Virus record (IMG/VR): IMGVR_UViG_3300036951_000304
Direction: 5' to 3' (one strand)
Length of the DNA stretch: 64,000 nucleotides
Source: a virus
Lineage: Duplodnaviria > Heunggongvirae > Uroviricota > Caudoviricetes
Both the position numbers and the translations under genes were made by a program. Below are positions 112 through 58,116 of the stretch, in pieces; positions within the stretch are counted from its first letter, which is position 1; each line of letters opens with the position of its first letter. A model generated the notes under the pieces. It saw nothing but the letters and a program-made list of their open reading frames with translations, was not told the origin of the DNA and ran no database searches.

Positions 112-185
112 TGGAGCGGGGTAAGGGAATTGAACCCTCGGCATCAGCTTGGAAGGCTGAGGTATTACCACTATACGAACCCCGC
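112..185 (-). tRNA. tRNA-Gly (anticodon UCC)
   Basis: CCA encoded (tgg 112-114), 7-bp acceptor gcggggt/accccgc, T-arm ggg-aattgaa-ccc, anticodon loop CUUCCAA. Confidence 0.75.
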
Positions 186-455
186 TTATTTTTTCTCAAA
201 ATCCGATGTTGGAAATCCCGTCCAAAGAAGAAAATAATTGGCTTCTTTTTCGGCAATCTTTGTGTTCAAACAGAACTTATTTTTCTTCAGATAAGAAACC
301 AACCACTTTCTGAATTGTTCTTCCTGCATCTTTGTCCATCTGTATTTCAGATACCATCTCTCTTTCTTTACTACGGAAGGATCATAAATGGCACCAACCA
401 TTTCAAACATCTTCGACAGGATTTCATCCAGATTTTTTTGTGTCAACTGCTTCAT
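186..455 (-). CDS. hypothetical protein (start trimmed to first Met after tRNA-Ile)
   Basis: ORF 186..554 overlaps tRNA 470-544; N-terminal part translates tRNA sequence, internal Met MKQLTQ at 455. Confidence 0.35.
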   Translation of the reverse strand: MKQLTQKNLDEILSKMFEMVGAIYDPSVVKKERWYLKYRWTKMQEEQFRKWLVSYLKKNKFCLNTKIAEKEANYFLLWTGFPTSDFEKK

Positions 456-469
456 AATAACTCCAATAT

Positions 470-544
470 TGGTAGCCGGGAGAGGAGTTGAACCTACCGT
501 CAAGCGATTATAAGTCGCACGTTCTACCATTGAACTACCCGGCC
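470..544 (-). tRNA. tRNA-Ile-like (anticodon UAU), weak T-stem
   Basis: tgg 470-472, acceptor agccggg/cccggcc, anticodon loop CUUAUAA; T-stem only 3 bp. Confidence 0.5.
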
Positions 545-552
545 ATATTTTC

Positions 553-667
553 AATCGGGGAACGGGGTCACGCCCGTTTCATAGGTTAGGGTCAACCATC
601 CTCTTTTCTGTCAGGTCAAGGCGGTCTATGAAACCCACTTCCATTATCGCTGACACGATACCCCGAT
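553..667 (-). ncRNA. long tRNA-like element (about 115 nt)
   Basis: perfect 7-bp acceptor pairing atcgggg (554-560) with ccccgat (661-667); T-arm-like aacggg-gtcacg-cccgtt; central region too long for canonical tRNA. Confidence 0.3.
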
Positions 668-672
668 ATTTC

Positions 673-758
673 TGGTGAGGAAGGTAGGATTTGCACCTAC
701 ACGCCCTTTCGAGCACAAGCCCCTCAGACTTGCGTGGCTGCTATTACACCACTTCCCC
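673..758 (-). tRNA. tRNA-Leu (anticodon GAG), class II
   Basis: 86 nt, CCA encoded, A73, anticodon loop CUGAGGG, 15-nt variable arm, T-arm gtagg-atttgca-cctac. Confidence 0.7.
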
Positions 759-760
759 AT

Positions 761-839
761 TGGTGCCGGAGGGGAGAGTCGAACTCCCACACTCCTAATT
801 TTAAGTCAGGAAGGTATGCCTAATTCCCTTCACTCCGGC
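761..839 (-). tRNA. tRNA with anticodon UAA (Leu-type) but short variable arm
   Basis: CCA encoded, acceptor gccggag/ctccggc, T-arm gggag-agtcgaa-ctccc, anticodon loop CUUAAAA, 12-nt D-loop, 5-nt variable region. Confidence 0.55.
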
Positions 840-1414
840 TAATCTATAAACTTTGTTTTATTTCCTTTTCTGATAACCGCCTCGATGGAAAACTCCCCGG
901 CCGCTATTACATATCTGTTATCTTTTATGTAATAACTGTAGTTATCGTCACACTTCTTCACATAAATTATATCATAATCCGTAAGATTGTCAATAATAAA
1001 TGGTATCAATCCTATTGTAACTGGCGGCTCATTTTTATCAATCACAAAGAACCATTTGTGATTTGCATTACCAGCAGAAGGTAGTGTCCTTCTCAATTCG
1101 AATAAATCACGATGAGGAACAAAAATAATGAGATATCCATCATCTCTCAATATTCTCCACCAGTTCTTTATTGCCACATCCGGTTTTTCCAAATCCTCAA
1201 GGCAATGTGACGAATATACGAAGTCATAAGTATTGTCCGGAATACCTTTCATATAAGTTGCATCGTGATCTTTACTGATGGATAGATCCCACATATCCAC
1301 ATCCGGAAGAATGGGGTCATTACCACAACCTATATCAATACCTCTTCCATTACAATACTTCTGGAAAAATCCCTCTTCGTGCCTTCTCTTTCTTGCTTTT
1401 CTTGTCTCGGCCAT
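839..1414 (-). CDS. class I SAM-dependent methyltransferase
   Basis: motif I GIDIGCGND, post-I acidic DVDMWD, DFVYSSHCLE, LRDDGYLII; stop overlaps tRNA 5' end by 1 nt. Confidence 0.6.
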   Translation of the reverse strand: MAETRKARKRRHEEGFFQKYCNGRGIDIGCGNDPILPDVDMWDLSISKDHDATYMKGIPDNTYDFVYSSHCLEDLEKPDVAIKNWWRILRDDGYLIIFVPHRDLFELRRTLPSAGNANHKWFFVIDKNEPPVTIGLIPFIIDNLTDYDIIYVKKCDDNYSYYIKDNRYVIAAGEFSIEAVIRKGNKTKFID

Positions 1415-1438
1415 ATCTGTTTTACTTCTATATATTTA

Positions 1439-1516
1439 TGGTGCCGGTGCAGGGAGTTGAACCCCGAAAACCTGCGTTCTAAGCGCAGTATGTATGCCAA
1501 GTTCCATCACACCGGC
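1439..1516 (-). tRNA. tRNA with anticodon UAG (Leu-type) but class I architecture
   Basis: CCA encoded, acceptor gccggtg/caccggc, anticodon stem CUGCG/CGCAG loop CUUAGAA, short variable region, atypical D-arm. Confidence 0.5.
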
Positions 1517-1524
1517 ATAAATTT

Positions 1525-1599
1525 TGGAGCGGATGAACGGATTTGAACCGTCAACCTTCTCGATGGCAACGAGATACTCTACCGTTGAGTTACATCCGC
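1525..1599 (-). tRNA. tRNA-Gly (anticodon GCC)
   Basis: CCA encoded, acceptor gcggatg/catccgc, anticodon stem UCUCG/CGAGA loop UUGCCAU. Confidence 0.7.
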
Positions 1600-1607
1600 A
1601 TATTTTC

Positions 1608-1690
1608 TGGAGCCGATGGAGGGAATCGAACCCCCACAGATTTCTCCGGCTGATTACAAATCAGCTGCCATACCATTAGGCGACATCGGC
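1608..1690 (-). tRNA. tRNA-like, anticodon UGU (Thr-type) with 13-nt variable region
   Basis: CCA encoded, acceptor gccgatg/catcggc, anticodon stem GCUGA/UCAGC loop UUUGUAA; 83 nt. Confidence 0.45.
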
Positions 1691-1697
1691 ATTATTC

Positions 1698-1774
1698 TGG
1701 AATGGGGCGCCCGAATCTAACGGGCTTCGGCATTTGAGCCTTGCTTCTCATAGCCAGTCCATACCAGACCCCAT
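1698..1774 (-). ncRNA. tRNA-like element, anticodon arm not resolvable (possible pseudo-tRNA)
   Basis: good acceptor (atggggt/gccccat) and T-arm gcccg-uuagauu-cgggc but no canonical anticodon stem-loop. Confidence 0.3.
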
Positions 1775-1782
1775 ATATTTAT

Positions 1783-1858
1783 TGGAGCCGGAAATCGGAT
1801 TTGAACCGATAATCTTGTCCTTACGAAAGACCTGCGTTTCCAGTTGCGCTATTCCGGC
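1783..1858 (-). tRNA. tRNA-Thr (anticodon CGU)
   Basis: CCA encoded, acceptor gccggaa/ttccggc, T-arm ucgga-uuugaac-cgau, anticodon loop UUCGUAA with 4-bp stem. Confidence 0.55.
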
Positions 1859-1860
1859 AT

Positions 1861-1937
1861 TGGTGGAGACAGGCGGAATTGAACCGCCGACCTCTTGCTC
1901 TTCAGGCAAGCGCTACTACCTACTGAGCTACATCTCC
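1861..1937 (-). tRNA. tRNA-Phe (anticodon GAA)
   Basis: CCA encoded, T-arm ggcgg-aattgaa-ccgcc, anticodon stem CUUGC/GCAAG loop CUGAAGA, D-arm GCUCAGUAGGUAG. Confidence 0.75.
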
Positions 1938-1940
1938 AAT

Positions 1941-2005
1941 ATTCCCGAGCGGGAATAACCGATAACATTTCTTCCGAAAAGAACCGAATTATTCCCGAGC
2001 GGGAA
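1941..2005. repeat. two copies of hairpin ttattcccgagcgggaa 49 bp apart
   Basis: identical 16-17 nt palindromic units at 1941-1957 and 1990-2006 downstream (minus sense) of the nucleotidyltransferase gene. Confidence 0.5.
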
Positions 2006-2108
2006 CTTTGTTCTATACGGGCTCCCATCCACGGCAGCCATGAGGACTAACCTGATGAGCCTCCCCATTCCTTGTAGGAATGGTCAGCGGGGCATCCCCT
2101 CAAACCCG

Positions 2109-2885
2109 TTATTTCAATAATAGTCTCCTTGCAACATCCATACAGAGTTCGTTTACTCTTACTCTGTCAGGAGAATGAGGAAGTGGAGATAACTCATACC
2201 ACCTTTCAAAGTCCTCATCAAACTTGGAAACATTCTCCATCAACTCATCGTAAGACCAGTATCCGTTTCTCAAAAAAACAAGAAACTCTGCTTCCGGTCT
2301 TGGAAAAGTAAGATTTCCGGTAAGTAACAGTTCCTTACCTTCATACATCAATCTCATCAGATGGGCAGCGTGTTTCGTATCATACCCAAACTTTTCCTCA
2401 AGGGCAAATCTTTCGGGATTTCTGTTTTTCTTCCAGAGTTCCCATGCTTCCCTTTCGGATTTATCGGTAGGAACAAAACCGTCCATCCATCTTTTATGGT
2501 TCTTCAACCTCTTGAGCTGAGAATGAGCATATCCTGAGAAAGTGTGTTTTGCTTTCTTGGAAAGAAAAGCATCTCTCACTTTCAGAACATCAAACCACTC
2601 ATCAGAATGGTTCAACCATTTATCTTCAGGAACAAAAAGCAACTCGACCATATTCGGGTTACAGTCAAGAGTAAGTTTCAGGAACTTTCTGAACTCATAA
2701 AAAACCTTGTCCTGTTTCTTATCCTCAACCTGTTCAACCCTGTCAAGAAAGCCGAGCCAGTATCTTTCCGGTGCAAGGAACACACCCCTTTCATCCACAT
2801 CAGAAGTTTCCGTTGCGGTTCCGTAAAGATGACTTCCGGCTACAGTCCTGAACAATAACTTGTAATCACTTGGTAGTCCTAACAT
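2109..2885 (-). CDS. pol-beta superfamily nucleotidyltransferase (minimal NTase-like)
   Basis: GSHLYGTATETSDVDERGVF = GS..Y..(n)..SD.D nucleotidyltransferase signature near N-terminus. Confidence 0.55.
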   Translation of the reverse strand: MLGLPSDYKLLFRTVAGSHLYGTATETSDVDERGVFLAPERYWLGFLDRVEQVEDKKQDKVFYEFRKFLKLTLDCNPNMVELLFVPEDKWLNHSDEWFDVLKVRDAFLSKKAKHTFSGYAHSQLKRLKNHKRWMDGFVPTDKSEREAWELWKKNRNPERFALEEKFGYDTKHAAHLMRLMYEGKELLLTGNLTFPRPEAEFLVFLRNGYWSYDELMENVSKFDEDFERWYELSPLPHSPDRVRVNELCMDVARRLLLK

Positions 2886-2890
2886 TTTAT

Positions 2891-3472
2891 TTACCTTTCC
2901 TCTTTATAAGGTCTTATCCAATCATTGTAGTTATAATTCAATGTTGGAAAATTTTTCTTGATATGATTTACAAAAGCCATTATCTCCTGTAATTCAACCG
3001 GATAAAATTTCCACCAATCAACACCTACATTGATGAGGATATTTCCTCTTTTTGTATCATTCCAAGTTATCCACTTTGCTCTCCAATTCAAGTGAACGTG
3101 AGCAACAAGGTTGATATTGATATCCCTGTTTATGTGTCTTGGATCGTGGACACAATACAAAAGATTATTTCCGTTTCTCAAAGTGAGATTCTCAATTTTT
3201 GTCTTGAGCCCGTTGTTTTTATCGTGGTTTCCCCTGATAAAAACCTTGTCACCATTCAGCCTCTCAATATAATAATCCACTCTGTTACATTCATTGAAAG
3301 CAAAATCTCCAACAAATATAACGGTGTCCTTTGGTTTCACCCTTTCGTTCCAGTTCCTTATCAAAACCCTATCCATCTTTTCCACGGTCTTGAAAGGCCT
3401 GTTGCAGAAACCAATCATATCTTCGTGACCGAAGTGAGTATCCGCTGTTATAAATGTTCTTCCCATTTTCAA
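2891..3472 (-). CDS. calcineurin-like metallophosphoesterase
   Basis: motifs DTHFGH, GDFAFNE, GNHD (IRGNHDKN), HVHL typical of MPP superfamily. Confidence 0.65.
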   Translation of the reverse strand: MKMGRTFITADTHFGHEDMIGFCNRPFKTVEKMDRVLIRNWNERVKPKDTVIFVGDFAFNECNRVDYYIERLNGDKVFIRGNHDKNNGLKTKIENLTLRNGNNLLYCVHDPRHINRDININLVAHVHLNWRAKWITWNDTKRGNILINVGVDWWKFYPVELQEIMAFVNHIKKNFPTLNYNYNDWIRPYKEER

Positions 3473-3476
3473 TCCT

Positions 3477-3552
3477 TGGTGGAGCGTGAGAGACTTGAAC
3501 TCTCGACCCCAAGACTGCCAGCCTTGTGCTCTCCCAACTGAGCTAACGCCCC
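3477..3552 (-). tRNA. tRNA-Ala (anticodon GGC), G3-U70
   Basis: CCA encoded, acceptor GGGGCGU with G3-U70 wobble, T-arm gagag-acuugaa-cucuc, anticodon loop CUGGCAG. Confidence 0.6.
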
Positions 3553-3555
3553 ATT

Positions 3556-3849
3556 CTATTCAATTACAAATAATTCATCCGGTAAAAATTCCTCAGCAGT
3601 TACTACCTTCCCCGTACTCGCGTACCAGATACTAAAACCCAAATCTTTTAATTGTAATGCCTGTTCCTTCGTCATATTTACCCTGTATGACAAACTATTG
3701 GTTCCCGTGATAGTATCCATAAAGTCAACAATGTCTTTTGCTTCTTTCAGACCAAGAGAAAGCACAGACCTCAACTCCTTGATGACTTGTATTTTCATGA
3801 GGTTACCATTCGGTCTTACATTTTTGTATATGTAAAAATCGTGATACAT
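3556..3849 (-). CDS. ribosomal protein bL12 (L7/L12) C-terminal-domain-like protein lacking the N-terminal L10-binding domain
   Basis: [24 protein letters not shown] matches the L7/L12 CTD core [24 protein letters not shown]; start trimmed to Met after tRNA-Glu overlap. Confidence 0.65.
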   Translation of the reverse strand: [97 protein letters not shown]

Positions 3850-3860
3850 ATTCTTTCCTC

Positions 3861-3935
3861 TGGTACTCCCAAAGAGATTTGAACTCATATTTCCGGCGTG
3901 AGAGGCCAGCGTCCTAACCATTAGACGATGGGAGC
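3861..3935 (-). tRNA. tRNA-Glu (anticodon CUC)
   Basis: CCA encoded, acceptor GCUCCCA/UGGGAGU (G1-U72), anticodon stem CUGGC/GCCGG loop CUCUCAC. Confidence 0.6.
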
Positions 3936-4005
3936 AAAAATTGTATAATTAGGCATAGTATGTCGAAAATCTCTCGACCTTCTGTGCCTCTTTCGACACT
4001 TTTTA

Positions 4006-4081
4006 TGGCGGGCCTTGAAGGATTTCAACCCTCATCTGCTTGTTTTGGAGACAAGTGTGTTTGCGTTTACACCAAAGACCC
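4006..4081 (-). tRNA. tRNA-Trp (anticodon CCA)
   Basis: CCA encoded, acceptor GGGUCUU/AAGGCCC, anticodon stem CUUGU/ACAAG loop CUCCAAA. Confidence 0.7.
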
Positions 4082-4094
4082 GTATTTTATAAAA

Positions 4095-4182
4095 ATTGTA
4101 TCAACGGAATTGAACCGTCCACCACCGCCAAATGACGGAGCTTCAGACCACTAATCGGCACATACGTTTGCCTTTGATACAA
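4095..4182 (-). ncRNA. class-II-length tRNA-like (88 nt), anticodon arm unresolved, CCA not encoded
   Basis: perfect acceptor ttgtatc/gatacaa, T-arm gacgg-uucaauu-ccguu; central 56 nt does not give canonical anticodon arm by eye. Confidence 0.35.
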
Positions 4183-4191
4183 CTTTATTTT

Positions 4192-4267
4192 TGGTGGGTA
4201 TGACAGGATTTGAACCTGCGCTCTATCGGTTAAGAGCCGATTGCATTTGCCACTTTGCTACATACCC
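4192..4267 (-). tRNA. tRNA-Lys (anticodon CUU)
   Basis: CCA encoded, acceptor gggtatg/cataccc, anticodon stem AUCGG/CCGAU loop CUCUUAA. Confidence 0.7.
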
Positions 4268-4276
4268 ACATATTTT

Positions 4277-4351
4277 TGGTGAAGCCGAAGGGAATTGAAC
4301 CCTCAACCTACTGGTTAAAAGCCAGTTGCTCTACCGTTGAGCTACGACCTC
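4277..4351 (-). tRNA. tRNA-Lys (anticodon UUU)
   Basis: CCA encoded, anticodon stem ACUGG/CCAGU loop CUUUUAA, acceptor pairs with two wobbles. Confidence 0.7.
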
Positions 4352-4359
4352 ATATTTCG

Positions 4360-4469
4360 TGGGATGTGGTAGGATTATACCTACTGGCATCACTATTTTA
4401 TAGGGATAAAAAGTTGGCATCCCTATAGAGTGCCCCTTCAGGCCTTACCAACATCGTAGCTCACATCCC
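4360..4469 (-). ncRNA. long tRNA-like element (about 110 nt) with internal 9-bp hairpin
   Basis: terminal pairing gggatgtg (4361-4368) with cacatccc (4462-4469), T-arm-like gtagg-attata-cctac, inner hairpin tatagggat..atccctata. Confidence 0.3.
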
Positions 4470-4474
4470 ATATA

Positions 4475-4552
4475 TGGTAGACCCGACGAGATTTGAACTC
4501 GCAATCTCCACCTTGAAAGGGTGGCGGCATAATCCGTTTCGCCTACGGGTCT
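4475..4552 (-). tRNA. tRNA-Glu (anticodon UUC)
   Basis: CCA encoded, acceptor agacccg/cgggtct, anticodon stem CCACC/GGUGG loop CUUUCAA. Confidence 0.7.
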
Positions 4553-4637
4553 ATATTTTGGAGGGCGGTTTATTCTCATTAACCTACGGATTACCGCGGC
4601 ATCCGGTGGGGCTTTAACCCACATCTCCCATATTTTC

Positions 4638-4713
4638 TGGAGGGCCCGATGGGAATTGCACCCACAATCTACGGTTTTGCAGACCGTCGCCTTAGCTATT
4701 TGGCCACGAGCCC
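4638..4713 (-). tRNA. tRNA-Cys (anticodon GCA)
   Basis: CCA encoded, anticodon stem ACGGU/ACCGU loop CUGCAAA, T-arm with aauugca loop. Confidence 0.7.
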
Positions 4714-4718
4714 ATTAA

Positions 4719-4830
4719 GTGTAGATGCTTGCAAGTCATCTACACAGAACCGATTTTCACGGTTCTCTCTTTCCATAGGTTGATGAACGGTTATGATTTC
4801 CCGTTCCGTTCCCTATGGCGTGATGGAAGA
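4719..4830. other. nested stable hairpins in spacer between tRNA-Cys and tRNA-Asp
   Basis: 9-bp stem gtgtagatg/catctacac, 7-bp agaaccg/cggttct, 7-bp ccatagg/cctatgg enclosing gaacgg/ccgttc. Confidence 0.45.
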
Positions 4831-4844
4831 GTACCACCAAGTTC

Positions 4845-4920
4845 TGGCGACCTTGATGGGAGTTGCACCCACGCCTACTTGATTGACAGTCAAGTGCTCT
4901 GGCTACTAAGCTACAAGGCC
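4845..4920 (-). tRNA. tRNA-Asp (anticodon GUC)
   Basis: CCA encoded, anticodon stem CUUGA/UCAAG loop CUGUCAA. Confidence 0.7.
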
Positions 4921-5044
4921 ATTCTATAGATGGGTAGGTTTCCAACCCTACTGGACGGTGTTTACCCTCTTGTGTGACCAAGCTTTAGTAGAAGCCCACA
5001 ATACTATCAACCGTTACTGATACTACTATATCACCATCTATTTT

Positions 5045-5121
5045 TGGGGTGACAGACGGGAATCGAACCCGCTCCTTACAGGGGCCACAACCCTGTGCCT
5101 CACCATTTGGCTTCTGCCACC
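5045..5121 (-). tRNA. tRNA-His (anticodon GUG) with encoded G-1
   Basis: CCA encoded, anticodon stem CAGGG/CCCUG loop UUGUGGC, extra 5' G (from c5121) opposite C73 discriminator. Confidence 0.75.
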
Positions 5122-5129
5122 ATATATTT

Positions 5130-5219
5130 TGGTGGGAGATGGAGGAGTTGAACCACCCGTCTGCCGCCCCACATAATTATAGACAACGGTTTTACAGACC
5201 GCCGTGGGGAACATCTCCC
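5130..5219 (-). tRNA. tRNA-Tyr-like (anticodon loop CUGUAAA, GUA), 90 nt, atypical D/variable regions
   Basis: CCA encoded, perfect acceptor gggagat/atctccc, T-arm, anticodon loop identical to bacterial tRNA-Tyr; D-arm region shortened and variable region very long. Confidence 0.5.
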
Positions 5220-5226
5220 GTGTTTT

Positions 5227-5299
5227 TGGTAGCGGGTGAGGGAATCGAACCCCCTGAACCTTGGTTATGAGCCATGGCGAGATACCAATCTTACCCGCG
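5227..5299 (-). tRNA. tRNA-Met or Ile2 (anticodon CAU) with C1-U72 mismatch
   Basis: CCA encoded, acceptor CGCGGGU/ACCCGCU, anticodon loop CUCAUAA. Confidence 0.6.
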
Positions 5300-5380
5300 A
5301 AAATCCCGCCCGGGGAATTGAAGGAACCTTATTCTAACGATGTTATACATCGTGCTGGATTCGATACCAGCATCACCGGG
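5300..5380 (-). ncRNA. degenerate tRNA-like spacer element
   Basis: flanked by conserved inter-tRNA motifs, contains ggaattgaagg T-loop-like sequence but stems do not pair; hairpin gctgg-tatcgaat-ccagc. Confidence 0.2.
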
Positions 5381-5386
5381 ATATTT

Positions 5387-5463
5387 TGGTGGAGCGTGAG
5401 AGATTCGAACTCTCTGCCTTCTCGGTGCAAGCGAGATGCTCTCCCATAGTGAGCTAACGCCCC
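5387..5463 (-). tRNA. tRNA-Ala (anticodon UGC), G3-U70
   Basis: CCA encoded, acceptor GGGGCGU G3-U70, perfect T-arm gagag-auucgaa-cucuc, anticodon stem UCUCG/CGAGA loop CUUGCAC. Confidence 0.75.
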
Positions 5464-5561
5464 ATATTTTTTCTGGGCGTGGTGATGGCCGGTATTGGAC
5501 ATAAGTTTTATCCGGCTTCCTCCTCACATTTCTGCAATCACCACGACATTTTTTTACAGAT

Positions 5562-5672
5562 TGACATTATCCCATTCCTAATCACTCTACCGCGCACTCC
5601 CGGTTTCCGGCCGGCGGCTCGTCATAGATTCAATATAGTCACAGAAATAATCTCGAGCGCCAATCTGTATAT
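5562..5672. repeat. structured spacer element copy A (paralog of 6228-6298)
   Basis: terminal 8-bp stem acagattg/caatctgt, contains agaTTGACAttatccc and GC-rich inner hairpins ccgg-ttt-ccgg, ccggccgg. Confidence 0.5.
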
Positions 5673-5686
5673 TCTGTTTTCAAAGA

Positions 5687-5762
5687 TGGTAGAATCGGCG
5701 GGAGTTGAACCCACGACCTTTGCCGTGTCAGGGCAACGCTCTCCCAACTGAGCTACGATTCT
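5687..5762 (-). tRNA. tRNA-Val (anticodon GAC)
   Basis: CCA encoded, canonical D-arm UAGCUCAGUUGGGAGAGC, anticodon stem UUGCC/GGCAA loop CUGACAC. Confidence 0.75.
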
Positions 5763-5858
5763 ATAGTGAGTAAGGTGTTTTCGTTGTGGTTATCCTCACT
5801 CATTACCACACCATTACATATAGGGCTCTTACCGCCTATATGAGTAATTCATAGAGGT

Positions 5859-5960
5859 GTTGTCAGGTGGGAGTTGAACCCACATTTCCTTTATGGAAGT
5901 GTCCGCCGCGCGACGAATTTACTTCCTCAAAGTTGTCCTATCCATTAGACGAACTGACCA
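5859..5960 (-). ncRNA. long tRNA-like element (about 100 nt); anticodon arm replaced by 12-bp hairpin with 20-nt loop
   Basis: acceptor ttgtcag/ctgacca, T-arm gtggg-agttgaa-cccac, D-arm-like GUCU..GGAC, long hairpin CUUUGAGGAAGU...ACUUCCAUAAAG. Confidence 0.3.
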
Positions 5961-5997
5961 AGGCGTTCCGGACTACCTTGTTTACACCTATATTTTC

Positions 5998-6073
5998 TGG
6001 TAGCCGGTGAGGGAATTGAACCCCCGGCCCTCACGGTGTAAACGTGATGCTCTCCCAATTGAGCTAACCGGCT
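5998..6073 (-). tRNA. tRNA-Val (anticodon UAC)
   Basis: CCA encoded, acceptor agccggt/accggct, anticodon stem UCACG/CGUGA loop UUUACAC. Confidence 0.75.
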
Positions 6074-6077
6074 ATAT

Positions 6078-6213
6078 AAAGAGGTTGTAGCATATACATC
6101 GTATACTATGTAATATGTGTCTAACTCTTATCTACTTCGTATCCCTTGCAATCAGGCTACAGGTCAGCCCGGCCTCAGGCTGACATTCGATGAAGTGTTT
6201 CCACTCACAACCT
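6078..6213. other. structured spacer with long-range inverted repeat and inner hairpin
   Basis: aagaggttg (6079-6087) pairs caacctct (6204-6211); inner stem gtcagcc/ggctgac. Confidence 0.35.
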
Positions 6214-6227
6214 CTATATTTTGTGTA

Positions 6228-6298
6228 GATTGACATTACCCTGTTACGAGGTGACGCCCCCATTTGTAACAGTAATAATTCCGGACGCCAATCTACAT
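6228..6298. repeat. structured spacer element copy B (paralog of 5562-5672)
   Basis: terminal stem gtagattgac/gccaatctac, contains TTGACAttaccc, inner 7-bp hairpin ctgttac/gtaacag. Confidence 0.5.
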
Positions 6299-6300
6299 TC

Positions 6301-6376
6301 TGGTCGGAGAGACAGGATTTGAACCTGCGACTTCTTGATCCCAAGTCAAGCACGCTACCATCTGCGCCACTCTCCG
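6301..6376 (-). tRNA. tRNA-Pro (anticodon UGG)
   Basis: CCA encoded, acceptor cggagag/ctctccg, anticodon stem CUUGA/UCAAG loop CUUGGGA. Confidence 0.75.
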
Positions 6377-6379
6377 ATA

Positions 6380-6440
6380 TTTTTCAAAGAACAAAAACAA
6401 AAAAGGGAGATTGAGTCAAAACCCAATCTCCCTTCAATAA
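6380..6440 (-). terminator. rho-independent terminator (minus strand)
   Basis: 9-bp stem gggagattg/caatctccc followed on minus strand by TTTTTTGTTTTTG. Confidence 0.6.
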
Positions 6441-6639
6441 TTCTACTCTATAGGATTTGACTCTTCTATTCTATAGTGCCCCCCTCTGCTGGCTTTGTTT
6501 CAATCGCAAGGCTCGGCACTAAATAAAACCAACAATCTTTATGTAGAAAATATTTCGTCATAGAATCCTCTGAAATTATATGTCAATATTATATATGTAA
6601 ATTATAACACAGTTTACATAGAATGTAAACAATTTTTTC

Positions 6640-6713
6640 TGGCTCCGGTAAATGGAATCGAACCAATAACTAATGGTTAACAGCCATTCGTGATACCGTT
6701 TCACCATACCGGA
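6640..6713 (-). tRNA. tRNA-Asn (anticodon GUU)
   Basis: CCA encoded, acceptor tccggta/taccgga, anticodon stem AAUGG/CCAUU loop CUGUUAA. Confidence 0.7.
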
Positions 6714-6996
6714 ATGTGTTTCCTGCTGGCCACCAGTTATTCCCTCGCTGGGGTGGCTCCACGGCGGCGAGGCCAGATGTTGTCAGGACAGGAAACGGTG
6801 ACAACCCACGGATTATAATAAAGAGGGCGAACAGATGGAATGGCGGTTCCTCTGTTCCTTACGAGTTCGTTCAACTTGCCGCAACAAGTTCATCTCTACT
6901 ACCCTCTAAATTTTCAAAGAATACGACATATCATATCATAATACGGTATCCCTGTCAAGAAAAATGTTTCTCAATAATTTCAATGACTTACGCAAT

Positions 6997-7051
6997 AAAA
7001 AAGGGCAGTATCTCCTTTACTTCGTAGGGGGCTTATACTGCCCTTTGGCAA
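6997..7051. terminator. bidirectional rho-independent terminator downstream of tmRNA
   Basis: 9-bp stem gggcagtat/atactgccc flanked by aaaaaa upstream and ttt downstream on plus strand. Confidence 0.6.
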
Positions 7052-7107
7052 GATTCTATGAAAAGAATCGCTCGCCCTTCATTATATGACCCCCTCATTG
7101 TTATTTA

Positions 7108-7470
7108 TGGTGGAGGTGGCCGGAATCGAACCGGCGTCCAAAAGCCCCGATAAATCAGGTGAATTACACGCTTCTCTGTTTGTTGCGGTCAATTCGATGC
7201 TCCTAACAGAAAACCGATACATCAAATCCAGTTTCTTTATTACCGTGAAATAGGCGAAACAACCTATTTTCCCGGCTCCCCATTGATTTGAACAATTTCC
7301 AACCCCGATGGAGAGGAGAGTATGAAAATTGTGGGCGGTTAACTAAGCCGCCATTGCGTAACTATAACTGTAGTCTGCGCTTATATGATAATCAGTTGAT
7401 AACGGAGCCGATGATTATCTCCGGCGTGCGCCTGAAGTACCAAAACCTCTGTCGAAGCCTGTGCACCCCC
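7108..7470 (-). ncRNA. ssrA: tmRNA (SsrA-like) with tag reading frame ADYSYSYAMAA-UAG
   Basis: 5' GGGGGUGCACAGGCUUCGAC resembles tmRNA 5' GGGGCUG..GGAUUCGAC; 3' tRNA-like end GCCGG-UUCGAUU-CCGGC-CACCUCC-A-CCA; acceptor G3-U70; internal ORF GCA GAC UAC AGU UAU AGU UAC GCA AUG GCG GCU UAG. Confidence 0.75.
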
Positions 7471-7491: not shown

Positions 7492-7520
7492 ATTCTATCA
7501 CATATTTATGGCGATGTAAA
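7492..7520 (-). promoter_or_regulatory. sigma70-like promoter for tmRNA (minus strand)
   Basis: minus-strand TTTACA-17 bp-TAGAAT about 24 nt upstream of tmRNA 5' end. Confidence 0.5.
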
Positions 7521-9438: not shown

Positions 9439-10194
9439 ATGAAATTAAATGTTGAGAATTTTAAATCTGTGTTACAGAAAGCAACACTCAATTTTTCAAT
9501 AGAGAGTGTTCAGCTGAAATTAACTTCAGATAAAATCCAATCCAGAATGTTGATGCAAAATTCCAAGGATGCCATCGTAATTCTGGATGTCGCAAATGAT
9601 GTACTTGAAATAAAGAGGGGAGCCGAATATACATTGAACTTTTCGGAACCAAGTATATCTGTTATGCCATATCTCGCCCTTATAGAAGGTGATGAAGAGG
9701 CGGATATCAGAATTTTCGATGAAAAAATAGCGATTACATCTGGAAACCAGAAATCAAATATCTTCTTCTGCTCACCAAATGTCGTTACTGTTTTTTCAGC
9801 AACGGCGCCGAGAGAAAGTGTAAAATATTTTGTCTCGTTTGACTTAAATTCTTCATTCATATCCGATTTCAATAAAATCAAGAAAATTGGAATGAGGTTC
9901 GGTAAAATATATTTCACCGTCATAAACAAGATATTCTCGATGGAGACTACAGATAAACAGAATCCATATTCCAACACTCTGAAATTTGATTTATTACAGG
10001 ATATAAAAGAGGACGATTTGAACCTATGTTTTGATTACAGGAACTTTGTGAACCTGATGTCCGTCATCGAAGATGATTTCGACAATTTCAGAACGAATTT
10101 CGCCTTTGTGAGACAGCAGGAACTTGGTATGGTATTTGTCGAGAAGAAAGACGGCACGGAGAAGTATTATCTAATGTCAAGAAAAGAGGTATAA
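9439..10194 (+). CDS. putative sliding clamp (gp45-like) - positional inference
   Basis: 251 aa, MKL start and size similar to T4 gp45, located beside clamp loader; sequence similarity only vague. Confidence 0.4.
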   Translation: MKLNVENFKSVLQKATLNFSIESVQLKLTSDKIQSRMLMQNSKDAIVILDVANDVLEIKRGAEYTLNFSEPSISVMPYLALIEGDEEADIRIFDEKIAITSGNQKSNIFFCSPNVVTVFSATAPRESVKYFVSFDLNSSFISDFNKIKKIGMRFGKIYFTVINKIFSMETTDKQNPYSNTLKFDLLQDIKEDDLNLCFDYRNFVNLMSVIEDDFDNFRTNFAFVRQQELGMVFVEKKDGTEKYYLMSRKEV

Positions 10195-25171: not shown

Positions 25172-26197
25172 TTGAATATGTTATCACTACAATTTGTGAG
25201 AGAATTTGTATTTCAGCATTTCCCCAAAGTAACCACATCCAAGAACGGAACCCATTTCCACGCGAGATGCGTGCTCTGCGGGGATTCAAAAATAAGCCCG
25301 AGTAAAAAGAGATTTCATCTTGACTATCATAATGGAGAGCCCGGCTACCATTGTTTCAATTGTGGGGCAAAGGGATCATTCGTCAAGTTGTATTCTATTA
25401 TTATGGGTATGTCCATCGCGGAAGCCAAGAAAGAGATATACAAATATGACCCCGAACAAATAAAGAAAGCCCTGACAGAAAAACCAAACGGTAATGGTAA
25501 TGGTAAGAAAGAATACCATATCAGGAGTATGGATAATATTCTGGATGAATGTATAGGTATTGATACAGAGGCGAGAGGAACAATTGAACCCCAATACCAA
25601 AAACTTCTCAAGAAATTCATAGAGGAAAGAAAGATACCGAAAAATTTCAAGATATTTGTGGCAACAAGTGGAAGATATAAGGGGAGAGCAATTATACCGA
25701 TTTACAAGGACGGACATATTGTTTATTTCCAAGGCCGGGCCCTTGTCAATATAGAGCCAAAATATCTCAACCCGATAGTGGAAAAGAGTGGTATCATTAT
25801 GAATGAGGAAAAGTTCCAGAGAGACAAATATGTTATCGTCACGGAAGGTCTGCTAGATGCTATGATGATTGGGGATCAGGGAACATCGGTTCTTGGCGCA
25901 GACATTGACGAATACTTCGTAAAGAAAGTTGGCTCTATGACAGATAAGGGCATCATTGTTGTTCTGGATAATGATGAAACGGGATATGAAAAACTTATGG
26001 GAAAGAAGAAAGGCGAGGGATTACTCAATCAGGATTATTCAAATCCCCTCAAATTTTTCATAATGCCAAAGAAATATTCCCATATAAAAGATTTGAACCA
26101 GCTTGTGTCCAAGACAAATATAAAAAATATATATCAGTTTGTTGTGGATAATAGTTATGATAAGTTTGCTTGTAAAGTAAAACTGGGGTTGAAATGA
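25172..26197 (+). CDS. DNA primase (zinc-finger + TOPRIM, T7/T4 gp61-like)
   Basis: CVLCGDS..(n)..CFNCGAKG zinc ribbon; TOPRIM-like VIVTEGLLDAMM and VVLDNDETG. Confidence 0.6.
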   Translation: MNMLSLQFVREFVFQHFPKVTTSKNGTHFHARCVLCGDSKISPSKKRFHLDYHNGEPGYHCFNCGAKGSFVKLYSIIMGMSIAEAKKEIYKYDPEQIKKALTEKPNGNGNGKKEYHIRSMDNILDECIGIDTEARGTIEPQYQKLLKKFIEERKIPKNFKIFVATSGRYKGRAIIPIYKDGHIVYFQGRALVNIEPKYLNPIVEKSGIIMNEEKFQRDKYVIVTEGLLDAMMIGDQGTSVLGADIDEYFVKKVGSMTDKGIIVVLDNDETGYEKLMGKKKGEGLLNQDYSNPLKFFIMPKKYSHIKDLNQLVSKTNIKNIYQFVVDNSYDKFACKVKLGLK

Positions 26198-27423
26198 GCC
26201 AGATAAAAACGGGGAGAAGTGAAAGCTACAGGGTAGAAATACATCCAGAATATGTAAAAAAGTTTTACAACCAGAAGTGGAAGGATTGGAATAAAAGCCA
26301 CAAGAGGAAAGGAGAATACTATTTCCTGACAAAATATACATCCCCATTGTTTGTAAGCGTGCTGGATTATGACGGTGAAACTATAACATTGGAAAATTGT
26401 GGGGAGCCTCTGGAACCTGAGAACAGAGAAATACCATTTACAGAAAATAAAGATATTGATTTATTTGAACTGGTAAAATGGTTATACGACCTGCGCTCCG
26501 AACTCAAAAGATTTAAAATAATTCACAGAGACATCAATCCGACCAATATCCTCTACAAAAAAGAAACCCAAAAGTTCAAATTAATAGATTTCAACTGGGC
26601 TGAAGAACTTCGAGAGCCTTCTGGCATTGTTCCGCCCCCCCAATTGAATACGGCCTTGGATAAACCCCGTGGCATCGAAGGCCCAAGTTATTATATAGAG
26701 GATGATAAGAGTATAAACAAGATGATGACATTGGCAATCCAAAAGATGATTGGGGATATTGCGTCAGAAGGATATAAGGATGGGAGTAGCGTAAACAGGG
26801 GATGGTTTTATCATCCAAGCCCCTTCGAAGAATTTTCCGAAATACCCGTTCACAAAACAACCGCGATAGATGAATATAAGGAAATAGTGTTCAATTCAAG
26901 CATTATTGACCTGAAAGGAAGTAATATTCTTGATATTGGTTCGTCTCAAGGATATTTTGCATTCAAATTGGCTGAAATTGCGAAGTCAATCATCGGTATC
27001 GAGGGTGATATTTTCACATATAGGGTAACAGAGGCGATAAGACTATTGAAAGATATACGAAATATATCTTTCCTGAATTATTATCTCGATGAGAACACAA
27101 TACCGAATGAAAATTTTGATATCACGATTTTTTTGAACACTCATATGTGGATTTACAAGCAAATCGGCCCAATCAGGACACAACATTTGATGAGGAAACT
27201 ATCAGAGAAAACCAAGAATATGTTCTTTCAGACATCAGGAATTGATGGAAACGCAATGTTCAATATAAGCGAGTTTAAAACATCGGATGATATTGGAAAA
27301 TACCTGCTTGCCTCAGGTTTCAAGAACATAAAACTTATCAGAACATCACATAAACACGGGGGAAACAGACATTTATTTTATGCAGAGGGGTCTAATTATA
27401 TAAATACACTTGGGAAGTTTTAA
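26194..27423 (+). CDS. protein-kinase-like domain fused to class I SAM-methyltransferase domain
   Basis: catalytic loop IIHRDINPTNILY and LIDFNWAEE (HRD..N / DFG-like); C-terminal ILDIGSSQGYFAFKLAE (MTase motif I). Confidence 0.5.
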   Translation: MSQIKTGRSESYRVEIHPEYVKKFYNQKWKDWNKSHKRKGEYYFLTKYTSPLFVSVLDYDGETITLENCGEPLEPENREIPFTENKDIDLFELVKWLYDLRSELKRFKIIHRDINPTNILYKKETQKFKLIDFNWAEELREPSGIVPPPQLNTALDKPRGIEGPSYYIEDDKSINKMMTLAIQKMIGDIASEGYKDGSSVNRGWFYHPSPFEEFSEIPVHKTTAIDEYKEIVFNSSIIDLKGSNILDIGSSQGYFAFKLAEIAKSIIGIEGDIFTYRVTEAIRLLKDIRNISFLNYYLDENTIPNENFDITIFLNTHMWIYKQIGPIRTQHLMRKLSEKTKNMFFQTSGIDGNAMFNISEFKTSDDIGKYLLASGFKNIKLIRTSHKHGGNRHLFYAEGSNYINTLGKF

Positions 27424-34421: not shown

Positions 34422-34501
34422 TGGTGCCCCCGTGAGGATTCGAACCCCAACATTATCCTTGGTTCGTGGCCAAGTGCTCTATCCAGTTGAGCTACGGAGG
34501 C
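34422..34501 (-). tRNA. tRNA-Arg (anticodon ACG), 8-nt variable region
   Basis: tgg then acceptor, T-arm tgagg-attcgaa-cccca, D-arm UAGCUCAACUGGAUAGAGC, anticodon stem CUUGG/CCAAG loop CCACGAA. Confidence 0.55.
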
Positions 34502-35386
34502 TTATTCTACTTCAAAGAAGGCGGAAACAGGCTCTTCCTCTTCCTCGATTTCAATTTCTCCGTCCACAAATTTACCCGGCCTTCTACAGACGATGATATA
34601 TTCGTGGATTTTCGATGTGTATCTGTTTGCAGCCACCTTCCCCGCCTGTAGTGCTCCAAAGGGGCTGATATTCTTCACTACAATGATATCCCAAACAATA
34701 AATCCGATTTCCTTGAAAATTCGGAGTGAATCGGCGTGGAATATTCTGAAATCCTTTGCATCCCGCCAATCGGCACAGACCCAAACAAAAAATCTCCCCT
34801 CTTTCAAGACCCTCATTACATTCGAGCCACAATCATATATGGACATAAGAAAATCCGCATATGATTTGATGTCAGATAATTGACCCGGCACACTCTCGTA
34901 TCTTTCCAATGCGTGATAAGGTGGGCAAGTAAAAACCAAATCCGCGGATTTATCCGGTGTTTTTTTCAATCTGACCCCATCCTCATTATAGATGGTGGCT
35001 TTCGAATTGTGTTTTTCCAGATGGTCAACAACCTTTCTGTATGTCTCCGGTGATATTTCATATCCAAAATAATTCCGGCCCAGTTTACTTGAGACAAAAG
35101 CCCTTGTCGCCCTTCCACAAAATGGATCAACGATTGTATCACCTTTCAATGACCAATATTTTACAATCCACTCCGCCAATTCGGCGTGAAACTCCGAAAA
35201 TCCCAAATTGGGAAGATATTTACAGTCATCCGACCTTCTGAACTCCACATTTTCAAGGTAGGCGTGCTTCCATTTCATCTTACCTTTCTTTGTGGGTTCA
35301 AGCACAGACATAGGTGAGAAACCGAATTGGTCAGACACCTTCATATTCACATTGAACGGTAATACTTGTTTATATTTCTTCTTCAT
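34502..35386 (-). CDS. DNA amino-methyltransferase (N6-adenine or N4-cytosine)
   Basis: motif I DPFCGRATRAF and motif IV TCPPY. Confidence 0.6.
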   Translation of the reverse strand: MKKKYKQVLPFNVNMKVSDQFGFSPMSVLEPTKKGKMKWKHAYLENVEFRRSDDCKYLPNLGFSEFHAELAEWIVKYWSLKGDTIVDPFCGRATRAFVSSKLGRNYFGYEISPETYRKVVDHLEKHNSKATIYNEDGVRLKKTPDKSADLVFTCPPYHALERYESVPGQLSDIKSYADFLMSIYDCGSNVMRVLKEGRFFVWVCADWRDAKDFRIFHADSLRIFKEIGFIVWDIIVVKNISPFGALQAGKVAANRYTSKIHEYIIVCRRPGKFVDGEIEIEEEEEPVSAFFEVE

Positions 35387-35396
35387 AATCTTATAT

Positions 35397-35472
35397 TGGA
35401 GCCCCTGACAGGATTCGAACCCGCATAAGAGAGTTTAGGAAACTCTTGCCTCATCCATTAGGCTACAGGGGC
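35397..35472 (-). tRNA. tRNA-Arg (anticodon CCU)
   Basis: CCA encoded, acceptor gcccctg/caggggc, T-arm acagg-attcgaa-cccgc, anticodon stem AGAGU/ACUCU loop UUCCUAA. Confidence 0.7.
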
Positions 35473-35480
35473 ATATTTTC

Positions 35481-35556
35481 TGGCACCCCCAAGAGGATTC
35501 GAACCTCTATAAGACTGCTTAGAAGGCAGTTGCCTGATCCATTAGGCTATGGGGGT
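35481..35556 (-). tRNA. tRNA-Arg (anticodon UCU)
   Basis: CCA encoded, acceptor accccca/tgggggt, anticodon stem ACUGC/GCAGU loop CUUCUAA. Confidence 0.7.
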
Positions 35557-52045: not shown

Positions 52046-52597
52046 TCACACCATCACTATCTTGAATGGAGGCCTGACTACCGAACAGTACATTGATGAG
52101 ACTGTAAGTGCCATTGTAACTTTCTCTTCCGGTTTATATCTATCATCTTTTGATAGGATATATAAAGCACCAAGAGCATACGGGCCACCTTCACCACAGG
52201 CCTCAAAATGTTCCATAGATTCCGTGGGTGAAAAATCCTCTTCTATAAGAAACAATCTTCCACGAAACCCCACAAGGATTTCTGAACCCGTGAGTTTTAT
52301 CTTGTTCCTGACCATTTGATCTTCAAGGTCTGGAAGAAATGACCGATAGACATAACTCTGTGGCTCTTGTCTCAATCCCGCCGCCGGAAGCTCGAAGCAA
52401 TGTTTCAAAAAATAACCTATACGATAGGAACCGCAAAACCCCACTACAATTTCCGTGTCGTTTTGCCCTGTCAGTCGAAAAACTTTCTCCGATTTTCTCA
52501 ATCTCTGGTCACTTGATCCATCACCCGTAGCCGCACTATCTCCACCCATATAAATCACATCGTTATCAACATATCCCACTACACAGCTCATAATCAA
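52046..52597 (-). CDS. Ntn-hydrolase / proteasome-beta (HslV)-like protein
   Basis: N-terminal SCVVGYVDNDVIYMGGDSAATGDG resembles proteasome/HslV N-terminal nucleophile region. Confidence 0.45.
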   Translation of the reverse strand: MIMSCVVGYVDNDVIYMGGDSAATGDGSSDQRLRKSEKVFRLTGQNDTEIVVGFCGSYRIGYFLKHCFELPAAGLRQEPQSYVYRSFLPDLEDQMVRNKIKLTGSEILVGFRGRLFLIEEDFSPTESMEHFEACGEGGPYALGALYILSKDDRYKPEEKVTMALTVSSMYCSVVRPPFKIVMV

Positions 52598-53004
52598 TCC
52601 TCAATCGTAAATAATTTTTCATCCAGACCTACTTTTGGTGTTTCCTTGAGATTTGTGATTCCCCCCTTCTCATTATAAGAGAAGATTATTGTCTCGATGA
52701 GAGAAAAAAGTTTTTCGGGTACAAAGGAACCGATAGATCCCTCTTTTTTCGTAAGGGTATTTCTGATATAAAGAGTGTTCTGCCCCGTGGAAAATCCCGT
52801 GAAGGATGCGGTGACAACCATATAATCCCTTCCATCGGGGGTTTTGACAGATGTATAGATTTTATCTTTTGCATAGGCGAAAAAACCTACATACTTTTTA
52901 CCGTCTGGTGACATAACATTGACATCCACCCGATAGAAGTGAATGGGCGCACCACTATTTTCCCTGTCAACAACCCATTGTCTATCATAATTATTCCAAG
53001 CCAT
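52594..53004 (-). CDS. hypothetical protein
   Basis: 136-aa ORF. Confidence 0.45.
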   Translation of the reverse strand: MAWNNYDRQWVVDRENSGAPIHFYRVDVNVMSPDGKKYVGFFAYAKDKIYTSVKTPDGRDYMVVTASFTGFSTGQNTLYIRNTLTKKEGSIGSFVPEKLFSLIETIIFSYNEKGGITNLKETPKVGLDEKLFTIED

Positions 53005-57729: not shown

Positions 57730-58116
57730 TTATTCGATGAAAAACAACCTATCCCATTCTGGAATAAAATCAGGGATTTCGATTTTATCACCGAACATCA
57801 TATTATATTCTTTGATGGCAAAAAGTATCTGTTTCAAATCGTCGCGAGATACTTCAACACCTATGGTATCGTAATCTTGCCGTGAACCTCTGACAAAAAG
57901 AGTTTTACTTTCCTCTCTCCATTCAGGGCATCCAGCAGATTTCAATTTCACCCCGTTACTTGATAAAAAGGAGCTGCCGGGGCGTAAGCCTGTACCAGAT
58001 TTCATCGGAACAAATCTTTCATTTCTATGAGACTGCTCGATAATACGCACAATGTTACGATTATTATCAAGTGTCCAGGCTTCCACTTCTATCAAGAGTT
58101 TCCTTTTCTCTTTCAT
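57730..58116 (-). CDS. hypothetical protein
   Basis: 128-aa ORF. Confidence 0.45.
   Translation of the reverse strand: MKEKRKLLIEVEAWTLDNNRNIVRIIEQSHRNERFVPMKSGTGLRPGSSFLSSNGVKLKSAGCPEWREESKTLFVRGSRQDYDTIGVEVSRDDLKQILFAIKEYNMMFGDKIEIPDFIPEWDRLFFIE

Follow-up and report, generated by a model that had tools for sequence, protein, structure and literature searches.

The DNA studied here is a stretch of 64,000 nucleotides (nt) from the IMG/VR virus record IMGVR_UViG_3300036951_000304 (Duplodnaviria; Heunggongvirae; Uroviricota; Caudoviricetes), which we refer to as a whole as the window. On its minus strand, at positions 3556-3849, it contains an open reading frame (ORF) of 97 codons plus stop (ATG at 3847-3849, stop codon TAG at 3556-3558). 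Judged by its sequence and its predicted structure, the product is a complete but diverged version of the head, or C-terminal domain (CTD), of ribosomal protein bL12, which stands alone, without the N-terminal domain (NTD) and the hinge. The ORF lies inside an array of phage tRNA genes, its product retains the surface residues through which bL12 recruits translational GTPases, and it ends in a flexible tail that recurs on unrelated proteins of the same phage. The gene is genuine, and selection maintains it as an accessory gene in what is a large T4-like phage.

An original prediction, made from the DNA letters, had assigned the ORF to the bL12 CTD, and both the profile searches and the structure comparison that we carried out agree with it. 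The protein matches the Pfam family PF00542 (Ribosomal_L12) with 35.1 bits and an E-value of 1.6e-8 (gathering cut-off 25.9). When it was compared to the sequences in the PDB by phmmer, the top matches were all bL12 chains, the best one being that of T. thermophilus (E = 6.5e-4). Moreover, a profile of the subfamily to which the protein belongs retrieves bona fide bL12, containing both PF16320 and PF00542, at E ~1e-7 from 5.8 billion sequences. An alignment with 15 genuine bL12 proteins recovers the complete domain, element by element. The first β-strand, which forms the N-terminus of the protein, reads FYIYKNV as compared to FSVVLK in bL12, the second reads SLSYRVN as compared to PKPVKEN and the third GFSIW as compared to GATVEIK. 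AlphaFold2 predicts a complete bL12-CTD/ClpS-like fold for residues 2-76 (3622-3846, minus strand), in the order β-α-α-β-α-β that is also found in bL12, with a mean predicted local distance difference test (pLDDT) score of 84.6. The predicted elements are β1 (residues 2-8), α4 (19-30), α5 (34-45), β2 (55-60), α6 (61-69) and β3 (73-76). A control prediction, based on an alignment of 14 subfamily members from which true bL12 proteins were left out, gave the same fold with a pLDDT of 85.1. In Foldseek searches bL12 of T. maritima and E. coli ranked first (E = 0.03-0.05), and the top match in the viral structure library BFVD was a 'bL12 C-terminal domain-containing protein' of Ralstonia phage RSJ5; these structural scores are modest, as is usual for a domain of 75 residues.

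The fold is common to the bL12 CTD and to ClpS, and the protein could in theory be a ClpS-like protease adaptor that recognizes N-degrons or binds the N-domain of a Clp ATPase, thereby redirecting host proteolysis. However, it is only 7-14% identical to ClpS, whereas it shares 36-41% identity with bacterial bL12 over ~59 residues. No Pfam ClpS match is obtained even at E <= 1, there is no sign of an N-degron pocket, and all sequence searches point to bL12. On these sequence grounds, identity and profile searches, a ClpS function was rejected, and we consider it extremely unlikely.

The hinge and the N-terminal dimerization and uL10-binding domain are absent from the ORF, as had been claimed for the dimerization and L10-binding domain at the outset. 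We searched all six frames of the window with a hidden Markov model (HMM) built from 70 bL12 NTDs, for which positive controls score between 1e-25 and 1e-31; the best match had an E-value of 0.69. For the window, this rules out a split bL12 whose NTD is encoded elsewhere. In line with this, the NCBIfam equivalog for full-length bL12, TIGR00855, scores 25.6 bits against a cut-off of 84.4. Entry into the ribosomal stalk occurs through the NTD dimer bound to uL10. Since the NTD is absent, the 'hybrid stalks' that the original prediction had envisaged are unlikely to form.

Nevertheless, the protein might associate with the ribosome by non-canonical docking, for example with its tail on uL10/uL11 or on the NTD dimer of bL12, so that the stalk would gain an additional or modified head, which is what the original prediction calls a hybrid stalk. 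In principle, such an anchor could be provided by the tail, and one peptide of a phage bL12-domain protein was detected in ribosome fractions of E. coli; a tagged phage bL12, however, failed to co-purify with ribosomes (Mizuno et al., 2019; PMC6375957). Furthermore, the tail is shared with unrelated proteins, as detailed below, and neither NTD and hinge nor a TIGR00855 match above cut-off could be found. A ribosome-bound factor of this kind therefore seems very unlikely to us.

The start codon at 3849 is the correct one. This is supported by a Shine-Dalgarno sequence, GAGGA (3856-3860, minus strand), that lies 6 nt upstream of the ATG and directly follows the CCA end of a tRNA-Glu gene, by independent gene calls of exactly the same 97-amino-acid product on at least 22 contigs (ENA, JGI, NCBI and Logan assemblies), and by the homology to the orthologues, which sets in at the same point. 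The orthologue on contig L006 has AGAGG at the equivalent upstream position. A longer version of the ORF (3556-3921, 121 amino acids) was rejected: its extra 24 codons consist of tRNA-Glu gene sequence and add no domain, it has no Shine-Dalgarno sequence and no further Pfam match, and the extension is not common to the orthologues. Thus, the trimmed start, which had been chosen to avoid the tRNA-Glu gene, holds, and the coordinates and the quoted protein sequence proved correct.

The L006 orthologue (P0002) is 58% identical to the window protein and occupies the same slot, in the order tRNA-Glu(ctc), gene and tRNA-Ala(ggc); the phosphoesterase and RlaP genes come next, as they do in the window. 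Between the two genes the proportion of nonsynonymous differences is 0.25, as opposed to a saturated 0.88 for synonymous differences, which indicates strong purifying selection. A separate query of IMG/VR recovered a third orthologue on contigs L146/L147, again between tRNA-Glu and tRNA-Ala. Among 50,697 phage records megablast found no match to a 20-kb segment, and tblastn against phage records detected only hairpin-level similarity, to Ralstonia RSJ2 and to Streptomyces BE-type phages, neither of which has the gene adjoining tRNAs.

A conserved patch of the domain is informative with regard to function. It is established that in bL12 the patch formed by helices 4 and 5 of the CTD docks helix D of EF-Tu, EF-G and other translational GTPases (Kothe 2004; Diaconu 2005; Helgstrand 2007). 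The corresponding helix 4-helix 5 hairpin of the window protein (3712-3795, minus strand), delineated by the Pfam and PDB alignments, keeps all residues implicated in docking EF-Tu, EF-G, IF2 and RF3. E. coli K65, V66, I69, K70, R73, L80, E82 and K84 correspond to K19, I20, I23, K24, R27, L34, E36 and K38; all eight equivalents are present, with V66 replaced by isoleucine. In subfamily members that are ~30% identical the invariant columns are I20, I23, K24, R27, L34, E36, K38, (M44), L67, G71, F72 and F94. Because the docking residues are conserved, and invariant across the subfamily, it is a reasonable hypothesis that the window protein binds a translational GTPase. The same residue conservation was noted before for phage bL12 domains (Mizuno et al., 2019; PMC6375957).

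An exhaustive HMMER search of 1.84 billion representative proteins yielded only 312 matches at E <= 0.001. Ribosomal bL12 is not among the best of them, which instead form two groups. The first consists of long proteins from cells, in each of which 2-7 canonical bL12 CTDs follow one another in tandem, the second of short metagenomic proteins that have the compact version of the domain followed by a C-terminal tail, as is the case for the window protein. The family is rare: a profile of the second group, used to search 5.8 billion sequences, retrieves ~15 members, three of which have a single module (the window protein, P0002 and P0158), while about a dozen have two modules and a length of 150-200 amino acids. 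All relatives are metagenomic, and most of their contigs are short.

The bacterial multi-repeat PF00542 proteins of the first group are the highest-scoring relatives of the hairpin and use the domain off the ribosome. They differ from the window protein in that they are long and cellular, have full-length canonical CTDs ending in GA-x-V-E-V-K, lack the tail and were in no case seen in a tRNA context. In some of them the CTDs are fused to TIR domains, PNP-type effector domains, LRV/HEAT repeats or transmembrane segments. P0007 (686 amino acids), for example, combines a TIR domain and a coiled coil with four bL12 CTDs, and P0071 (796 amino acids) a PNP-superfamily effector (PADLOC 'Effector PN-superfamily', E = 5e-17) and pentapeptide repeats with three CTDs; other cellular proteins have five to seven CTDs together with LRV/HEAT repeats. 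Judging from these architectures, conflict systems appear to employ the stalk-head domain as a sensor, a bait or a localizer.

The second property that sets the gene apart is its position. It is part of an array of 23 tRNAs and a transfer-messenger RNA (tmRNA), all detected by ARAGORN, that occupies positions 112-7470 of the minus strand and includes a few co-oriented ORFs. Upstream, the 3' CCA of tRNA-Glu(ctc) (3861-3935, minus strand) ends 11 nt before the start codon; downstream, tRNA-Ala(ggc) (3477-3552, minus strand) begins 3 nt past the stop codon. The ORF is thus embedded between tRNA genes, as originally described, and both of them lie on its own strand. To see how general this is, we considered all family members on contigs with usable flanks, where L146/L147 were counted once and form a single syntenic group together with L006 and the window. 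The gene resides inside a co-oriented phage tRNA array in seven of eight distinct loci, and in six of these loci, as well as in L146/L147, the start codon is found 9-20 nt past the 3' end of a tRNA. This distance is 9 nt in L146/L147, 11 nt in the window, 12 nt in L006, 16 nt in L010 (17 tRNAs), 18 nt in L013 and 20 nt in both L009 (18 tRNAs) and L012; in L007 it amounts to ~1.4 kb. The flanking tRNAs vary by lineage (Glu/Ala, Gln/Tyr, Val/Glu or Val/Cys), which argues that the start-after-tRNA arrangement has been retained while the arrays were reshuffled. Our literature search for L12 linked to phage tRNA arrays found no such paper.

Between position ~6400 and the end of the gene at 3556 we found no consensus promoter or terminator on the minus strand. 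For this reason we infer that the gene is transcribed within the array, together with the upstream tRNAs. Given that only 11 nt separate the ORF from tRNA-Glu and 3 nt from tRNA-Ala, processing of the tRNA ends would then probably free its mRNA from the precursor. In L146/L147 (2838-3216) the stop codon of the bL12-like gene directly abuts the first base of tRNA-Ala, and with this 0-nt spacer cleavage by RNase P would yield an mRNA that ends exactly at the stop codon. A promoter-like site is seen at 7492-7520, just upstream of the tmRNA gene (7108-7470, minus strand; tag ADYSYSYAMAA), which forms the head of the array.

We also surveyed other viral bL12-like genes in IMG/VR. As a raw count, twelve out of 48 have a tRNA or tmRNA no more than 1 kb away, and all loci that have any tRNA within 6 kb have one within 2 kb. 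Among the IMG/VR bL12-like genes examined, the tail was restricted to the phage of the window (L014) and its close relatives L146/L147; the tRNA- or tmRNA-near loci L024, L030, L031/L041/L059, L038, L046, L049/L051/L058/L060 and L053 do not have it.

The tail itself comprises residues 77-97 (3559-3621, minus strand), is predicted to be flexible (pLDDT 55-73) and ends in LPDELFVIE (3559-3585). Tails of the family consist of a hydrophobic residue, one to three acidic or polar residues and then L-F-x-(I/L/F), as for example in HFEESLFEF, and we refer to them as LF tails. Two unrelated ORFs of the window, both of which lie in tightly packed runs of minus-strand genes, end in the same way: one of 136 amino acids (52594-53004) in LDEKLFTIED and one of 128 amino acids (57730-58116) in EWDRLFFIE. 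With the strict C-terminal pattern LF-x-I-(E/D), three of all ORFs in the window match as compared to 0.03 expected, and none of 2000 shuffles reached three; since the first case served to define the pattern, only the two additional matches should fairly be counted. Each phage has its own version of the motif. In L006 an 88-amino-acid neighbouring ORF (680-946) ends in IPDEMFVIE and the orthologue in LPDELFVID, and in L010 a 284-amino-acid ORF (122-976) ends in DAGDLFTI and the family member in NEDLFTI. The other tail-bearing ORFs have no match in Pfam or PHROG and no relatives in cultured phages or IMG/VR. An antisense ORF of 84 amino acids on contig L145, ending in EELFLFIE, was dismissed as a chance occurrence, since a genuine RimK-like gene encloses it and its ending departs from the strict motif. 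Based on its low pLDDT, its conservation throughout the family and its recurrence on unrelated ORFs, the tail looks like a portable docking peptide of proteins that would be clients of a common hub.

In its form the tail resembles those of known hub clients, such as T4 gp43, gp33 and gp55, which bind the gp45 clamp, proteins with the bacterial clamp motif QL(S/D)LF, SSB (...DDDIPF) and the archaeal/eukaryotic P-stalk (...GFGLFD). What it has in common with them is a short acidic stretch, L-F and a further hydrophobic residue at the very C-terminus, on a flexible segment that occurs on several unrelated proteins per genome. The window tail, however, matches none of these consensus motifs exactly, and the resemblance is one of form only. 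About 6 kb beyond the start of the window (L145, 10082-11134, plus strand) the same phage encodes an enzyme of the ATP-grasp type that is RimK-like (Pfam RimK, E = 8e-21). RimK adds glutamates to the C-terminal glutamate of ribosomal protein bS6, and by analogy it is conceivable that the RimK-like enzyme glutamylates the C-terminus of the proteins whose tails end in IE or IED.

An explanation without any role in translation was also considered. The protein may be a generic adaptor in which the bL12-CTD fold is no more than a compact module for binding proteins, as it is in the many non-ribosomal repeat proteins. The tail would deliver the module to a phage hub, for instance a clamp of the T4 type, and the gene would lie among the tRNAs simply because of the timing of its expression or because insertions are tolerated there. 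A candidate sliding clamp, and thus a possible tail receptor, is encoded at 9439-10194 on the plus strand (phrog_223 'DNA polymerase processivity factor', E = 5e-8), adjoining genes of the gp44/gp62 clamp-loader type. The clamp of T4 recognizes just such C-terminal tails on gp43, gp33 and gp55. Moreover, the nearest relatives in the exhaustive search are the non-ribosomal multi-repeat proteins rather than bL12, and the tail occurs on unrelated ORFs distant from the tRNA array. However, the RNase H, primase and SSB encoded in the window do not have the tail, and DNA polymerase, a known clamp client, was found neither in the window nor in the 28 kb that were walked beyond its start in IMG/VR. 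The start-after-tRNA position, which persists across lineages with changed flanking tRNAs, and the invariance of charged surface residues equivalent to the docking set of bL12 also speak against a generic adaptor. We regard such an adaptor as unlikely, albeit as the most probable of the rivals.

The reading that we tentatively favour, while placing it somewhat short of an even chance, is that of a soluble mimic of the stalk head that is made together with the phage tRNAs and acts off the ribosome. Being unable to join the stalk, it would use the helix 4/5 face to bind a normal client of bL12, most likely EF-Tu in the ternary complex or EF-G, while a second partner, used by several other phage proteins as well, would hold it by its tail. 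The net effect may be that the supply of factors is re-routed or buffered while the phage translates on its own tRNAs; the protein might inhibit translation of the host, or else channel factors to the phage tRNAs or protect them. Several points weigh against this. The Pfam alignment covers 28 residues only (19-46, corresponding to profile positions 12-39 of 67), which is the helix 4-helix 5 hairpin. The same hairpin residues are invariant in many non-ribosomal multi-repeat PF00542 proteins, so that their conservation may be structural or serve another ligand. Contacts between the bL12 CTD and the factors are weak and transient, and simple titration would therefore require very high expression. 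The tail is also present on proteins that have nothing to do with translation, and its partner is thus more suggestive of a general hub than of a translation factor. As to the genomic position, shared ancestry reduces the eight loci to about four independent lineages, meaning that the tRNA link is in part inherited synteny. It is also known that small accessory ORFs accumulate in the tRNA regions of large phages, and one single-module member, P0158, is found on a 2.1-kb contig (L011) that has no tRNA at all.

Going further, the elements could be combined into a 'free stalk' system. In it, a soluble head of one or two copies would capture EF-Tu ternary complexes or another client, the LF tail would connect it to a shared phage hub, functionally much like the tails of the P-stalk or of clamp clients, and the mRNA would be punctuated from the tRNA precursor. 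Such a system might serve as a private route of factor and tRNA delivery or as a shield against stalk-dependent defence nucleases. We consider this extension of the stalk-head mimic improbable. If it were true, it would be a new viral way to take over or protect elongation.

Alternatively, the free head might be an anti-defence decoy that soaks up host effectors which have to dock on ribosomal bL12, and so safeguards phage translation. An effector of this kind is Cami1, a CARF-RelE nuclease of type III CRISPR that is activated by cyclic tetra-adenylate (cA4); it cleaves mRNA in a ribosome-dependent manner and is cited for an interaction mediated by L12 (PMC11229360, PMC12179292). PDB entry 8phj, in which cA4-bound Cami1 is seen with the 70S ribosome, is among our fold matches by way of its bL12 chain. 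The gene sits with tRNAs, a tmRNA and genes of the RNA-repair type, a setting commonly read as translation counter-defence, and in cellular proteins TIR or PNP effector domains are fused to arrays of bL12 CTDs. On the other hand, the PADLOC defence models do not match the window protein, a decoy does not need a conserved second docking tail, and the proposal, which presupposes such effectors in the likely hosts, is entirely inferential. We hold the decoy to be a rather improbable explanation.

How does the protein compare to what has been described? With the bacterial bL12 CTD it shares the fold and the helix 4/5 motif. It differs, apart from the missing NTD and hinge, in a helix 6 that is four residues shorter, in a third strand of the type GF(S/T)(I/V) instead of GA-x-VE-(V/I)-K, in the extra 20-residue tail that follows the domain and in its location in a phage tRNA array instead of the rplJ-rplL operon. 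In the survey of Mizuno et al., bL12 was the second most common virus-encoded ribosomal protein, and short proteins that consist of the domain throughout were described, such as BAN92321 of Ralstonia phage RSB3 (98 amino acids) and those of RSJ2 and RSJ5 (PMC6375957). The window protein belongs in the same class: it is encoded by a viral genome, is of similar size (~95 amino acids) and is essentially a single CTD with the conserved hairpin, the domain spanning residues 2-76 of 97, a layout that it shares with the RSJ2 protein (95 amino acids). Stand-alone phage bL12 domains having thus been described in 2019, it is not new in kind. However, RSJ2 and RSB3 are T7-like podoviruses in which the gene is found in the early region with no tRNAs nearby, the C-termini of the Ralstonia phage proteins do not have the LF tail, and the subfamily of the window protein also has two-module members. 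What is new in this subfamily is the set of one or two compact modules, an LF tail shared with other phage proteins and a start-after-tRNA position that is found across lineages.

Several other features of the window and its relatives complete the picture. Immediately downstream of tRNA-Ala lies a calcineurin-like phosphoesterase gene (2891-3472, minus strand; PF00149, phrog_547), followed by a gene for a nucleotidyltransferase of the RlaP type, which is linked to an RNA-repair pathway (2109-2885, minus strand; PF10127, E = 4e-23, phrog_388); these are the two genes that are syntenic in L006. A class I methyltransferase ORF (839-1414, minus strand) is also found among the tRNAs, and a related phage has an RtcB RNA ligase gene in the same region (L007, 3624-4841). 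The tRNA-interleaved ORFs for methyltransferase, RlaP and phosphoesterase resemble an RNA-repair set, which fits an island for counter-defence against tRNA damage. A second cluster, situated 27 kb from the main array (34422-35556, minus strand), encodes tRNA-Arg with the anticodons acg, cct and tct and is interleaved with a DNA methyltransferase-like ORF (34502-35386), so that the window has a total of 26 tRNAs plus the tmRNA. Its replication genes include a clamp loader of the gp44/gp62 type, T4 RNase H, a gp32-like SSB, a primase and a ribonucleotide reductase; the phage context is shown by these genes, by the tRNAs and the tmRNA, and by the occurrence on IMG/VR contigs. Finally, an ORF of 409 amino acids (26194-27423, plus strand) shows a weak protein-kinase match (Pkinase/OspG-like) next to a methyltransferase region (Methyltransf_9).

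One contig bears on the host. In L001 (1-7995; ENA ERZ27249272, k141_548721) a Smithellaceae/Syntrophales segment (ribBA ... gltX), whose GltX is 85% identical to a protein of a metagenome-assembled genome, is joined to the phage within tRNA-Glu(CTC). Integration of a prophage at tRNA-Glu was considered and rejected. The junction tRNA is a hybrid whose 5' half is of the host type, whereas its T-arm and 3' acceptor strand are of the phage type, so that the G2-C71 pair is broken; this marks the contig as an assembly chimera. A tRNA-Glu(CTC) gene comes after gltX in Smithellaceae and has ~40 nt in common with the phage copy. This similarity of the gltX-linked tRNA-Glu, noticed by way of the chimeric contig, hints weakly at the clade of the host or at where the phage tRNA came from.

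Catalogues of phage genes that encode fragments of ribosomal proteins date back to 2019, and the role of these genes is still a puzzle: later phage papers annotate L7/L12 homologues with the remark that their function is unvalidated, and phage ribosomal-protein fragments are still called experimentally unvalidated (PMC13573597). The subfamily described here offers three handles on this puzzle that are without counterpart in the published examples, namely a tRNA-tied genomic position that is kept as lineages diverge and the flanking tRNAs are exchanged, an invariant surface that is identical to the GTPase-recruiting surface of bL12, and a portable docking peptide that is common to other proteins of the same phage. 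They translate into testable questions: which client of the stalk the protein might bind, what the receptor of the tail is and whether the mRNA is produced by tRNA processing. If the protein indeed modulates factor supply or blocks stalk-dependent toxins, it would reveal a new layer of host-translation control by large tRNA-carrying phages.

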